A stretch of DNA of 7,977 nt from a virus. Taxonomy: Duplodnaviria > Heunggongvirae > Uroviricota > Caudoviricetes. Below the pieces are notes generated by a model. It searched no databases. It had not been told where the DNA came from and worked only from the letters and a program-made list of their open reading frames with translations. Below are positions 1 through 5,067 of this stretch, piece after piece. The position numbers and the translations under genes were made by a program. The first letter of the stretch is position 1. Every line of letters starts with the position of its first letter. The stretch lies in IMG/VR virus record IMGVR_UViG_2545824714_000009; one strand, written 5' to 3'.

Positions 1-583
<583 letters not shown>

Positions 584-676
584 TTTGTTCTCCACGTATA
601 TGCGCTGCACCGCGCTGAATTCTGGTAAAAAGAATCCCTCACCATCCGGCGATTATTGAGTAAATTACGTTTCCAT

Positions 677-2100: not shown

Positions 2101-2145
2101 AAAAAGGACGGTACCAGCCGGAAGCAAGGGTACAAACTGGTACCG
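2101..2145 (-). terminator. Candidate intrinsic terminator/attenuator within the leftward operon leader
   Basis: On the minus strand, CGGUACCAG (2145-2137) pairs with CUGGUACCG (2117-2109) as a 9-bp stem around a 19-nt loop, followed by UCC and U5 (complement of the A-run 2101-2105). The loop is large for a canonical terminator. Confidence 0.4.
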
Positions 2146-2646: not shown

Positions 2647-2839
2647 AAAAAGGCCATTTCCATTCAGGGTCTGATGGAAATACTTCAGCCTGTTCCAAAG
2701 CACGGCGTAAAGAGAACACAACTCCAGCCATAATCTGATGTTTCCCATTGGTCCAGCTATCGCCGCTCTGATCTACAGGGGCGGCTATGTCGTATGACCA
2801 AACGACTTCACAGTTATTGTTTAAAATCTGGACTTTCAT
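2564..2839 (-). CDS. Hypothetical small acidic protein (91 aa), first gene downstream of the putative PL/OL region
   Basis: Minus-strand ORF. The ATG at 2839 is preceded by AGGTG with a 6-nt spacer (an alternative ATG at 2860 has a weaker RBS). The N-terminal part looks protein-like (MKVQILNNNCEVVWSYDIAAPVDQSGDSW...). The 3' 83 nt overlap the convergent plus-strand ORF, so the true C-terminus is uncertain. Not Arg-rich, so not N-like. Confidence 0.45.
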   Translation of the reverse strand: MKVQILNNNCEVVWSYDIAAPVDQSGDSWTNGKHQIMAGVVFSLRRALEQAEVFPSDPEWKWPFSICPNSESTFQKIGQKVALEEHQPTVS

Positions 2840-3046
2840 TTCATACACCTGCTTTAACATGAGTGCCTAGTGGCACAACATGACTCAACGAATCATCCTG
2901 GACTTCATATGCCCCAGGCGGCTACTTCGTGGGCGTCCTGCCTGTTCGTTTTTGACATTTACTGACTGCTTACGACACATGCACCGTGTTGCAACCAGAT
3001 TTTGTTGTAATCCTGTAGTTGGTCTGGAACAAAAGATAAAATTAAA

Positions 3047-3083
3047 TTGCGAGACATGCAAGTGATATTTGCGAGATATGCAA
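3047..3083. promoter_or_regulatory. Putative OL operator pair (two 15-bp near-palindromic sites) with the likely PL promoter
   Basis: TTGCGAGACATGCAA (3047-3061) and TTGCGAGATATGCAA (3069-3083), 22 bp centre to centre, share the TTGCG-N5-(A/T)GCAA architecture with the site at 3851-3865 between cI and cro. They lie just beyond the cI terminator, where OL/PL sits in lambdoid phages. Confidence 0.5.
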
Positions 3084-3096
3084 ATTTATAGGTAAT

Positions 3097-3117
3097 AAAA
3101 AGCCACCTTTCGGTGGC
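3097..3117 (-). terminator. Intrinsic terminator downstream of the repressor gene
   Basis: Minus-strand RNA GCCACC-GAAA-GGUGGC (6-bp GC stem, GNRA tetraloop; 3117-3102) followed by UUUUUAUU (3101-3094), 21 nt after the cI stop. Confidence 0.65.
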
Positions 3118-3137
3118 CGATGGATGGGATATTGAGG

Positions 3138-3830
3138 TTAATTATGTCTCTTAAGGGTTTGCGACTGACTGATTAAGACCTTTCCAAAGACCATGAATCG
3201 GTGTTCGTTTTCGCTAGTAATTCCCCATTCACGGTAAATCTGGTTATCAGAAATCACCAGCAGTTTGTCAGGAATCATTTGAAGTCTTTTAACGTATATT
3301 TTGTCATCAAAACCAAAGACATATATACCATCACCATCAAACTGATTGATGCTGACATCAACGAAGATGAGATCTCCGGGCTCAATGGTTGGACACATAC
3401 TGTCCCCACGAACGTTGATAACTTTGATGTGATTGGCTGGTCGTCCGCCGAACATTGATACAGCATTATCAGTTCTGTATTCGATGGCATGAATCACATC
3501 AATGACATCACCGCCCTGGATAAGGCCATTTCCCGCACTGGCACTGATATCCAGCATTTCAATACGGAACACATCCTTCACCTGCGCAACATCCTCATTA
3601 TTACTGTTTTTATATACAGTATTACTTTTGTGGGCAGAGGTAAAGAGATCAGCAATATCAACACCTAAGCTCTTGGCAATATTACTCAGTGTTTGTTCGG
3701 TAAATTGTTTTTGCTTACCCGTTTCTAAGCGCGAGATGTTCGCCGCATCTACTCCTATCGCTTCAGCGAGATCGGCGATTTTCATGTTCTTCGCTTGGCG
3801 AAGTTGTCTGACTCGGTTTCCTATGTTCAT
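3138..3830 (-). CDS. cI: CI-like prophage repressor: N-terminal XRE-type HTH plus C-terminal S24 (LexA-like) autopeptidase domain
   Basis: 230-aa ORF. N-terminus RVRQLRQAKNMKIADLAEAIGVDAANISRLETGKQ is an XRE-type HTH; there is an Ala-Gly candidate cleavage site (SASAGNG), a catalytic Ser in GDSM and a Lys in YVKRL. It is divergent from a Cro-like gene. No SD upstream; the -10/-35 spacing suggests a leaderless mRNA. Confidence 0.9.
   Translation of the reverse strand: MNIGNRVRQLRQAKNMKIADLAEAIGVDAANISRLETGKQKQFTEQTLSNIAKSLGVDIADLFTSAHKSNTVYKNSNNEDVAQVKDVFRIEMLDISASAGNGLIQGGDVIDVIHAIEYRTDNAVSMFGGRPANHIKVINVRGDSMCPTIEPGDLIFVDVSINQFDGDGIYVFGFDDKIYVKRLQMIPDKLLVISDNQIYREWGITSENEHRFMVFGKVLISQSQTLKRHN
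3602..3621. promoter_or_regulatory. Near-consensus LexA (SOS) box located inside the cI coding sequence
   Basis: TACTGTTTTTATATACAGTA matches the E. coli LexA box consensus TACTGTATATATATACAGTA at 18 of 20 positions, with intact CTGT-N8-ACAG. It is the only CTGT-N8-ACAG in the window and encodes TVYKNS in the CI inter-domain linker. Confidence 0.45.
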
Positions 3831-3927
3831 GCGTTTATTACATTTCTTTATTGCGTGATAAGCAAATCAACTTGCGCAAAATAATTGCGTGAAATAACAT
3901 GCATAACGCGCAATATTTGGAGGGCGT
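3831..3927. promoter_or_regulatory. Divergent immunity control region (OR-like operators, PRM-like and PR-like promoters)
   Basis: Operator-like site TTGCGTGATAAGCAA (3851-3865), palindrome TTGCGCAA (3872-3879) and further TTGCG/CGCAA half-sites (3885-3889, 3909-3913). Leftward promoter candidate: -35 TTGCTT, 17-bp spacer, -10 TGTAAT at -12..-7 relative to the cI ATG. Rightward candidate: -35 TTGCGC (3872-3877), 17 bp, -10 TAACAT (3895-3900), then GGAGG SD 5 nt before the cro ATG. Confidence 0.6.
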
Positions 3928-4188
3928 ATGCAATCACCATTACGAAATGTGCGTAAGGCGCATGGTTTCACTTTGCAGCATGTTGCTGCGGGTGTTCAAG
4001 TCAATCCAGCGACGTTGAGTCGTATTGAGAGGCTGGAGCAGATTCCATCTATCGAGCTTGCAGAACGTTTAGCCAATTTTTTTAAGGGTGAAGTCAGCGA
4101 AATGCAGATTCTTTATCCGGCACGTTTTCAATCTAGCCAAAACCAGAATGGGTTTAAACCACAGGAACAGGAGGTGAACCGTGGGTAA
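3928..4188 (+). CDS. cro: Cro-like HTH regulator (86 aa)
   Basis: ATG at 3928 with GGAGG 5 nt upstream. N-terminal HTH (GFTLQHVAAGVQVNPATLSRIE); divergent from the CI-like gene across an operator-bearing region. Confidence 0.8.
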   Translation: MQSPLRNVRKAHGFTLQHVAAGVQVNPATLSRIERLEQIPSIELAERLANFFKGEVSEMQILYPARFQSSQNQNGFKPQEQEVNRG

Positions 4189-4732
4189 GCATCACTGGAA
4201 AGTAGAAAAACAGCCTGAGTGGTACGTGAAAGCTGTCAGAAAAACTATCGCAGCGTTGCCGGGGGGGTACGCTGAAGCTGCTGACTGGCTGGATGTAACA
4301 GAGAACGCATTATTTAACCGCCTTCGTGCCGATGGCGATCAGATTTTCCCGCTGGGATGGGCAATGATTTTGCAACGTGCTGGTGGAACTCACTTCATTG
4401 CTGACGCTGTGGCGCAGTCTGCAAATGGCGTCTTTGTGTCTCTTCCTGATGTCGAGGATGTGGACAACGCCGATATCAACCAACGCCTGCTGGAGGTCAT
4501 TGAACAGATCGGCAGTTATTCAAAACAGATTCGTTCAGCAATCGAAGACGGTGTAGTGGAACCGCATGAGAAAACTGCAATTAACGACGAGCTATATCTC
4601 TCAATTTCGAAGCTGCAGGAGCATGCAGCACTGGTCTACAAAATCTTTTGCATTTCAGAAAGTAATGACGCCCGCGAGTGTGCAGCTCCGGGCGCCGTGG
4701 CGTGTCGTGACTGTGGAGAAACTAACGCATGA
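4181..4732 (+). CDS. CII-position early protein (183 aa); possibly YdaT/CII-like regulator, with a C-terminal Cys cluster
   Basis: GTG start at 4181 preceded by AGGAGGT with a 5-nt spacer, overlapping the cro stop by 8 nt. Sits directly after cro. C-terminus contains CxxxxxxxCxxC ([12 protein letters not shown]). Family assignment is from recollection and context only. Confidence 0.7.
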
Positions 4733-5067
4733 ACAGTTTAACAACACACTACCGTCGCTCGCAACTGATTGCGCTTCCTGTACCGGGTGGAAAAGCGAAG
4801 GTGGAGTATTGCTATGCAGTAAATGTACCAGGTGACAGGGAAATTGTAACCCACAGCTTTGCAGAGTGGGCTGTGGGTGATTTCAACCGGCAGAAGGAGA
4901 CAGTCCTTTGCGACAAGTTAACCGCTGGTTCAAAGATCACTACGGAGTGCCCGTCAGAGTCATTCGTTGGGAACCGGAAACACAACGGGTTATCTACCTC
5001 CGCGAAGGCTATGAGCATGAGTGCTTCAGTCCGCTCGAACAGTTTCGTCGTAAATTCAGGGAAATAG
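4729..5067 (+). CDS. Hypothetical early protein with likely disrupted reading frame (frameshift candidate or two overlapping small genes)
   Basis: ATG at 4729 overlaps the upstream stop (ATGA). The first ~63 codons look protein-like (…[38 protein letters not shown]), then the frame becomes Ser-rich. The other frame from ~4908 to 5087 reads as genuine protein ([54 protein letters not shown]) and has AAGGAG 9 nt before a TTG at 4908. Confidence 0.4.

Follow-up and report, generated by a model that had tools for sequence, protein, structure and literature searches.

A probable CI/Cro immunity switch with 15-bp operators flanking the repressor gene of an SfII-type lambdoid prophage

In phage lambda, the cI mRNA made from the repressor maintenance promoter (PRM) is leaderless: its first nucleotide is the A of the AUG, and it has no Shine-Dalgarno (SD) sequence. 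In the lactococcal phage TP901-1, the operators of the CI repressor are OR, OL, and OD, of which OD lies inside the first lytic gene, and looping has been shown in that system. A CI/Cro-type switch also operates in the immB region of the phages N15, PY54, and phiKO2, and the study concerned discusses leaderless transcripts for the prophage repressor (PMC4488713), suggesting that lambda is not alone in having a leaderless repressor mRNA. Here, we analyzed a 7,977-nucleotide stretch of Caudoviricetes DNA (IMG/VR record IMGVR_UViG_2545824714_000009; the whole stretch is called the window below), which contains the early control genes and sites of a lambdoid prophage. Judging from sequence comparison, we consider it likely that its cI-cro locus is the lysis/lysogeny immunity switch of an SfII-type prophage, with 15-bp operators flanking the repressor gene.

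Positions 2860 to 4200 of the window share 99.3% identity with Shigella phage SfII (KC736978), in which cI, cro, and cII are annotated, and 100% identity with the chromosome of E. coli FORC_031. The same gene order was obtained with Pfam: a 230-residue cI (3138 to 3830, minus strand; 100% identical to SfII CI) with an N-terminal HTH_3 domain (residues 7 to 62, 1e-11) and a C-terminal Peptidase_S24 domain (6e-19), an 86-residue cro (HTH_3; 3928 to 4188, plus strand), and a cII of the CP76/186 type (4181 to 4732, plus strand). The cI and cro genes are divergent and 97 bp apart, and the gap between them holds the sites that we term OR3, OR2 (an octamer), and OR1. At the other end of cI lies a strong predicted intrinsic terminator, GGCCACCGAAAGGTGGCT followed by a T run (3094 to 3118, minus strand), which also carries a terminator annotation in SfII and sets the left operators (OL) and the leftward promoter (PL) apart from the cI transcript. 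In the translation of cI, Ala99-Gly100, Ser144, and Lys181 stand in LexA-like spacing and are invariant in the alignment. Phmmer gave weak matches of cI to the 434 repressor chains 1per and 1sq8 (E-values of 4e-4 to 8e-3), the best E-value in a search of the PDB was 1e-4 with no solved structure of this protein, and by sequence the protein could be placed in no family narrower than the HTH_3 superfamily.

The original prediction, made from this DNA alone, had proposed three 15-bp sites of the form TTGCG-N5-WGCAA at 3047, 3069, and 3851, and all three can be read directly from the sequence. The pattern TTGCGNNNNNWGCAA matches exactly three times in the 7,977 bp, whereas 0.10 matches are expected; over 200 dinucleotide-preserving shuffles the mean was 0.10 and the maximum was 1, and none of the 200 reached three. 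An unbiased repeat finder recovered the same three sites as its family D1. OL1, the promoter-proximal left operator (TTGCGAGACATGCAA, 3047 to 3061), and OL2, the promoter-distal one (TTGCGAGATATGCAA, 3069 to 3083), match the generalized motif TTGCR-N5-YGCAA perfectly, and this pair accounts for the only two perfect matches to that motif in the 41.5-kb SfII genome. The third site, the OR3-like operator (TTGCGTGATAAGCAA, 3851 to 3865), has one mismatch to the generalized motif and spans positions -35 to -21 of the predicted PRM. Half-sites had also been claimed through position 3913, and these are present as the palindromic octamer TTGCGCAA (3872 to 3879), TTGCG (3885 to 3889), and a one-mismatch site, ATGCATAACGCGCAA (3899 to 3913). 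The last of these is the OR1-like operator, which has the consensus TTGCGTatTncGCAT in the cI orientation, and the octamer is the sole conserved part of the OR2-like position (TTGCGCAAAATAATT, 3872 to 3886). Two further candidates were rejected: a third OL site returned by the repeat finder at 2970 to 2984 (TTACGACACATGCAC) has two mismatches and is not conserved, and is thus either lineage-specific or due to chance, and a one-mismatch site at 4410 to 4424 inside cII is at the chance level and absent from diverged relatives.

Relatives of the locus were compared at two levels. The phages, ranked by cI identity, were mEp460 and Stx2a_1447 (~96%), a Salmonella ST64B-like phage (83%), Klebsiella phages (71%), Eeyore (67%), and Turner (43%). 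Bacterial genomes, taken as one per species, gave 24 loci with cI identities from 100% down to 40% (Citrobacter, Kluyvera, Klebsiella, Pantoea, Mixta, Rosenbergiella, Dryocola, Proteus, Serratia, and Phaseolibacter), to which an Acinetobacter homologue of 30% identity was added. The 19 non-redundant lineages derived from these cover about a dozen or more enterobacterial genera and cI identities down to ~54%; beyond them stands one further locus, shifted and of 40% identity. In these relatives the motif flanking cI generalizes to TTGCR-N5-YGCAA, and sites with 0 to 1 mismatch recur at fixed offsets from the cI ATG in 20 or more prophages with cI identities of 40% to 96%. These offsets are -35 (OR3) and -83 (OR1), joined in many loci by -56 (OR2), and further sites lie at -133/-134, inside cro, and at two OL positions ~50 to 90 bp beyond the cI stop, with 22 to 24 bp between OL2 and OL1 in most relatives. 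Across 22 lineages, the density of sites was 18.4 per kb in the regulatory stretches compared to 0.13 per kb elsewhere in the fetched DNA, a ratio of ~140-fold that is descriptive, given that the stretches were chosen after inspection of the data. The ungapped alignment of the 19 lineages conserves TTGCG..GCAT, TA(A/T)YAT, the OR2 octamer, TTTGC, CGCAA, and TGTAAT, along with the cro SD sequence and both start codons; the N5 spacers, the flanks, and the DNA between sites diverge. We found no description of TTGCR-N5-YGCAA operators in the searchable literature, a search that did not extend to the ST64B and SfV genome papers, and the SfII genome announcement does not mention these operators.

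The operator motif tracks the recognition helices of the two proteins. The helix of cI reads AANISRLETGK and that of Cro reads PATLSRIER, so that (N/T)-(I/L)-S-R-(L/I)-E is common to both; across the relatives, Cro keeps (N/T)LSRIER, and the cI helix (A/G/S)N(I/V)SR(L/V)ETGKQK is kept in every locus that bears the motif. Turner, whose repressor is 43% identical and carries the helix QAAIQKIETGK, has neither that helix nor the motif, and the Acinetobacter homologue has a different helix and no motif. We infer from this pattern that CI and Cro would both bind the TTGCR-N5-YGCAA sites. The prophage e14 was considered as a member of the same immunity type and rejected, given that its YmfK aligns in the S24 domain only (38% over 39 residues) and its intergenic repeats are of the GGTACA type; what e14 and this region have in common is only the downstream ymfL-like gene.

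Three promoters can be predicted around these sites, each with a 17-bp spacer. PL would have its -35 at TTGCAT (3061 to 3056) and its -10 at TATCTT (3038 to 3033) on the minus strand and start leftward near 3024 to 3027. The rightward promoter (PR; 3872 to 3900, plus strand) would consist of TTGCGC (3872 to 3877) and TAACAT (3895 to 3900) and start near 3906 to 3908, leaving a leader of ~21 nucleotides with GGAGG at 3919 to 3923 ahead of the cro ATG at 3928. The predicted PRM (3837 to 3865, minus strand) consists of TTGCTT (3865 to 3860) and TGTAAT (3842 to 3837), with its +1 at the A of the cI ATG (3830). In all three, an operator half-site is the -35 hexamer. OL1 contains the PL -35 and spacer, with the first six bases of its minus strand (TTGCAT) serving as the -35, and every lineage with two OL sites has a TAnnnT hexamer exactly 17 bp downstream of the OL1 TTGCRN. 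OR3 stands in the same relation to PRM as OL1 does to PL, and OL2 lies upstream of PL. Given that the site adjoining cI overlaps the PRM -35, it would be OR3-like and auto-repressing. The OR2 octamer doubles as the PR -35, and its columns and those of TAAYAT are conserved and ungapped in the relatives; OR1 overlaps the end of the PR -10, to which its outermost AT belongs, and the predicted start. The relatives preserve all of these promoter spacings, with no gaps in the alignment.

These features can be assembled into a working model. Dimers of CI (230 residues) and Cro (86 residues) would recognize the 15-bp inverted repeat, and in the lysogen CI on OL1/OL2 and OR1, possibly together with OR2, would shut PL and PR. 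Transcription from PRM would begin at the A of the cI AUG and yield a leaderless maintenance mRNA, and filling of OR3 would turn PRM off, providing negative autoregulation. RecA-stimulated self-cleavage at Ala99-Gly100 in the SOS response would lift repression, after which Cro, expressed from PR with its strong SD sequence, would act at the same sites. The sites and their conservation, the promoter-like geometry, the lack of an SD sequence before cI, and the protein domains are observed; the contacts of the proteins with DNA, the order in which the sites fill, the 5' ends of the transcripts, and CI self-cleavage are deduced from them.

Several observations weigh against this model. By count, one-mismatch matches to TTGCR-N5-YGCAA are not enriched, with 5 in the window versus 2.1 expected and 9 in the whole SfII genome versus 8.9 expected. 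A sigma-70 consensus scan of 2800 to 4250 with a threshold of 9/12 called no promoter; PL matches the consensus at 7 of 12 positions, and PR and PRM each match at 8. OR3 sits over the PRM -35 and is a perfect site in many relatives, which makes PRM activity in the lysogen hard to explain. OR2 has only one recognizable half-site in the window, so a lambda-like OR of three dimers is not established, and with one half-site conserved and its center at -49 from the predicted PRM start, the geometry of activation in lambda (-42) is not evident. Given the negative scan, the promoter calls are made by phylogenetic inference from conservation, and given the chance-level counts, the weaker sites are argued for from their clustering, position, and conservation. 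The same counts are what would be expected if the repeats were chance occurrences, and they bear on the explanation that the repeats are chance, relics of recombination, or sites for a host factor. We regard that explanation as extremely improbable, considering the three exact copies, the excess of sites at fixed offsets in 22 lineages, and the covariation of the motif with the cI/Cro helix, including its absence from heteroimmune neighbors such as e14.

The original prediction had placed TGTAAT at -12 to -7 relative to the cI ATG, with no SD sequence, and had read the cI mRNA as leaderless. The hexamer is at that position, and the 20 nucleotides upstream of cI gave an anti-SD duplex of -0.9 kcal/mol compared to -9.8 kcal/mol for cro. 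The leaderless reading is further supported by the geometry TTGCNN-17-TGTAAT-6-ATG, which is invariant in the 19 non-redundant lineages, with TGTAAT or the variants TTAAAT/TTTAAC as the -10 and with the -35 hexamer fixed at -35 to -30 from the ATG. The six bases between the -10 and the ATG vary (AAACGC, AGGCGC, GAGTGA, TGGCCT, TCAGCA, and others). Over the 19 lineages the mean anti-SD duplex was -1.4 kcal/mol for cI and -10.3 kcal/mol for cro, no lineage has an SD sequence before cI, and every lineage with the leaderless geometry starts with ATG. We conclude from these comparisons that transcription of cI from PRM very probably begins at the start codon itself.

An alternative is that the operators are real but most cI expression comes from a leadered transcript, arising by read-through or from a cII-dependent promoter in or beyond cro, in which case TGTAAT would be kept for another reason, such as being part of a protein-binding site. 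The CP76-type cII that follows cro makes an establishment promoter with a long leader probable, and PRM is a modest consensus match that the scan did not call. However, a -10 fixed at -12 to -7, with TTGCNN 17 bp upstream and six drifting nucleotides downstream, in 19 lineages weighs against this alternative, and the missing SD sequence means that a leadered cI mRNA would be poorly translated as well. A clade that does appear to be leadered points the same way. In Rosenbergiella (L023 and L024), an intact operator/PRM block (TTGCAT-17-TTTAAT) lies ~130 nucleotides upstream of the cI match, shifted by 43 nucleotides from the coding region, and the inserted stretch carries an SD-like GAGAG ahead of an apparent GTG start. 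From its sequence, this appears to be a leadered variant of an otherwise leaderless family, and its leader and GTG would be expected if leaderless translation demands a 5'-terminal AUG. Lambda itself has both establishment and leaderless maintenance transcripts, so the two are not mutually exclusive. We therefore consider it improbable that leadered transcripts are the main source of cI; a cII-dependent establishment transcript likely exists too and is compatible with a leaderless maintenance transcript.

The position of the start codon itself bears on this reading. In mEp460 (L002, 2666 to 3313) and Stx2a_1447 (L003, 2664 to 3311), cI is annotated as beginning at Met16, giving 215 residues, and we rejected this start, given that the residue is Ile or Leu elsewhere. 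The 15 residues ahead of it show conservation at the protein level and form part of the HTH_3 match. Together, the conserved residues and the unconserved Met16 place the true start at 3830, 45 nucleotides upstream, as in the 230-residue SfII annotation.

A fourth site on the right-hand side lies inside cro. This site, which we call O-cro (GTGCGTAAGGCGCAT, 3949 to 3963), covers cro codons 8 to 12, has two mismatches in the window, and is centered at ~+49 from the predicted PR start. In most relatives it has 0 to 1 mismatch at -133/-134 from the cI ATG, with a perfect match in several of them. Its Leu is encoded by TTG in 12 of 12 lineages, in contrast to four to six codons at each of five other conserved Leu columns of cro, where TTG accounts for 16 of 82 cases; its Arg is encoded by CGN in 15 of 17. 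The TGCG/CGCA core is retained even when the encoded amino acids change (Leu to Val and Ser to Ala). O-cro thus seems, from its codon usage, to be under selection at the DNA level, and it could act by looping with OR1 ~50 bp away, as a roadblock, or in Cro autoregulation. In two Pantoea loci (L018 and L021), an extra right-hand site is found at -112/-113 from the cI ATG, on the cro start codon (ATGCAAATCCCGCAA and ATGCAAATTGTGCAA in the cro orientation) and not at codons 8 to 12.

These right-hand sites could be wired differently from those of lambda. PRM would then be constitutive and moderately strong, repressed only through OR3, and PR would be held by OR1 together with O-cro, possibly by looping over the ~50 bp between them, and not by an OR1-OR2 pair. 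On paper, PRM (TTGCTT-17-TGTAAT) is no weaker than PR. OR3, at its offset over the PRM -35 to -21, has 0 to 1 mismatch in 22 lineages and is perfect in 16 of them, and the distal half of OR2 is not conserved: in the cI orientation, the left half of OR2 has one mismatch in 8 of 22 lineages and two to four in the other 14. The fixed offset of O-cro and its uniform Leu and Arg codons, set against mixed usage elsewhere in cro, also fit this arrangement. Yet the octamer of OR2 is invariant and a full one-mismatch OR2 is present in those 8 lineages, so a lambda-like cooperative OR1-OR2 pair may still operate. O-cro has two mismatches in the window, and start-proximal codon conservation can have other causes, as illustrated by codon 3 of cro (Ser, TCA), which is invariant as well. 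On balance, we hold the arrangement with OR3-only control of PRM to be possible but tentative, and we keep the working model with CI on OR1, and perhaps OR2, as the preferred description of the right-hand side.

The leader of the predicted PL transcript holds a further element that emerged from comparative analysis, a conserved structured RNA of 73 nucleotides (5'-CGAACAGGCAGGACGCCCACGAAGUAGCCGCCUGGGGCAUAUGAAGUCCAGGAUGAUUCG-3'; 2882 to 2954, minus strand). Across several immunity types, 49 phage records carry it in DNA that lacks annotation, among them SfV, SfIV, ST64B, e14, YeP1, ZF40, SPN3UB, mEp237, and a T5-like Providencia phage, and it was also detected in 63 of 80 viral contigs bearing its 14-mer core. 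There is one copy per phage, with a near-invariant core of 26 nucleotides, mostly 13 to 25 nucleotides after the -10 of a good early promoter, and these promoters are overlapped by diverse operator-like repeats. The two helices are paired in 95.5% of the cells of a 17-sequence alignment, with double changes in 9 of 13 pairs, and in 96.4% of the cells over 58 distinct viral-contig sequences. Neither the fraction of paired cells nor the covariation score was reached in any of 500 shuffles, and slid controls gave 16% to 53%. When the entire PL leader was folded by minimum free energy, nothing stood out (z = -0.4); the structure came from the comparative analysis only. Rfam reported no family in the window at its gathering thresholds and none at E ≤ 5 in 2800 to 4300, and no second copy of the element was found downstream of PR. 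The put RNA of HK022 was considered as the identity of this element and rejected, since the covariance model had no match in HK022 from 23.5 to 31.5 kb. Our guess is that the element is a cis-acting antitermination or stabilizing RNA. The composite picture, in which a four-site right switch (constitutive PRM auto-repressed through OR3, OR2 as a half-site, and O-cro acting with OR1 on PR by looping or as a roadblock) is combined with a PL-leader RNA that serves these N-less phages as a protein-independent antitermination or stabilizing element, is one that we would put forward only as a speculation, with the odds against it.

Two RNAs reported from related prophages were also considered. In Salmonella D23580, the noncoding RNA STnc1310 (2099207 to 2099280) lies ~330 nucleotides downstream of the ST64B cI homologue STMMW_20241 and is induced by peroxide and by nitric oxide shock along with early-left genes (PMC7067206), which is consistent with a PL transcript that includes STnc1310 in this immunity type. 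In E. coli K1 RS218, sRNA-17 is an ArcA-modulated small RNA of an mEp460-like prophage (PMC7719688). It was rejected as a PL leader, given that its homologue lies ~900 bp further left, where positions 2108 to 2128 (plus strand) match the start of sRNA-17 with one mismatch. This match falls in a stretch from 1600 to 2400 that is poor in open reading frames (ORFs) and whose long ORF has no Pfam match.

The immunity region is widespread. At least 80% of the 1,341-bp region is present in 1,040 of 5,426 complete E. coli genomes (~19%), and the immunity type is also carried by the Stx2-converting phages Stx2a_1447, WGPS2, and phiSTEC1575-Stx2k in addition to the serotype-converting SfII. It extends to Salmonella ST64B-like phages and to prophages of Klebsiella, Citrobacter, Pantoea, Proteus, and Serratia. 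At the left end of the window, a Pfam match to IstB_IS21 (8e-24; 100 to 285, plus strand) covers the C-terminal 52 residues of an IS21-family IstB, and the adjoining short ORF (329 to 610, minus strand), which gave no match in the Pfam search, may resemble YfdR of CPS-53. An insertion sequence has apparently entered the early-left region of the prophage, which differs there from SfII. A perfect 12-nucleotide inverted repeat, AACGCATGAACA, was also observed at 3824 to 3835 and 4724 to 4735, where one copy covers the cI start codon (minus strand) and the other that of the ORF following cII (4729, plus strand); within 2.2 kb this is probably due to chance.

In summary, the locus represents a well-defined further switch of the lambda type, with its own operator code, TTGCR-N5-YGCAA, and it introduces no new mechanism; the covarying RNA element in the PL leader is more novel than the switch itself. 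The operator consensus and promoter map provide a testable immunity specificity that predicts which prophages are homoimmune, correct mis-annotated cI starts, and offer a handle on the induction of Stx- and serotype-converting phages. The conceptual gain is small and the result is modestly surprising, namely that the lambda layout, with a probably leaderless repressor mRNA and with operator half-sites that hold the -35 hexamers, recurs here under another DNA-recognition code, and the main use will be in annotation and immunity typing.

Compared with lambda, the arrangement of the switch is familiar. Divergent cI and cro genes flank operators that both proteins would share, a further cluster of operators is found over PL, to the left of cI, and presumably serves that promoter, and the repressor has, by sequence, an N-terminal helix-turn-helix and a C-terminal self-cleaving S24 domain. 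In both systems the site adjoining cI overlaps PRM, and transcription from PRM begins at the AUG itself, without an SD sequence, which for this locus is a prediction from geometry; the distance between the PRM and PR starts is ~77 bp here and 82 bp in lambda. Other features differ. The operators are 15 bp and not 17 bp, there are two OL sites and not three, OR2 is only half conserved, and an additional site lies inside cro. OR3 sits over the -35 (center at -28), whereas that of lambda sits between the -10 and -35 (center at ~-19). Here, no rexAB genes separate cI from OL and the terminator directly follows cI, the cI helix-turn-helix is of the HTH_3/434-like class, and cII belongs to the 186/CP76 type. 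SfII-type phages are not reported to have an N gene (PMC3851460). The likeness to lambda assumed in the original prediction thus stands for the CI/Cro switch but does not extend beyond it, as the phage is of a cI/cro/CP76-type-cII kind without N.

Closer in protein fold are the repressors of 434 and P22, which belong to the same XRE/HTH_3 class, as seen in the Pfam HTH_3 assignment and the weak 434 matches, and which likewise use short symmetric half-sites around a non-contacted spacer of free sequence. The operators of 434 and P22 are 14 and 18 bp, and the half-site of 434 is ACAA, whereas here it is TTGCR around five central bases; the 434 immunity (ACAA-N6-TTGT) is therefore not matched, and TTGCR-N5-YGCAA would constitute a different specificity. 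The telomere phages N15, PY54, and phiKO2 are unlike this locus in that their proteins and operator sequences are probably unrelated. The repressor of TP901-1 is likewise unrelated and is non-cleavable, and its OD operator, downstream of the lytic promoter and inside the cro-like gene, offers the nearest parallel to O-cro (3949 to 3963).

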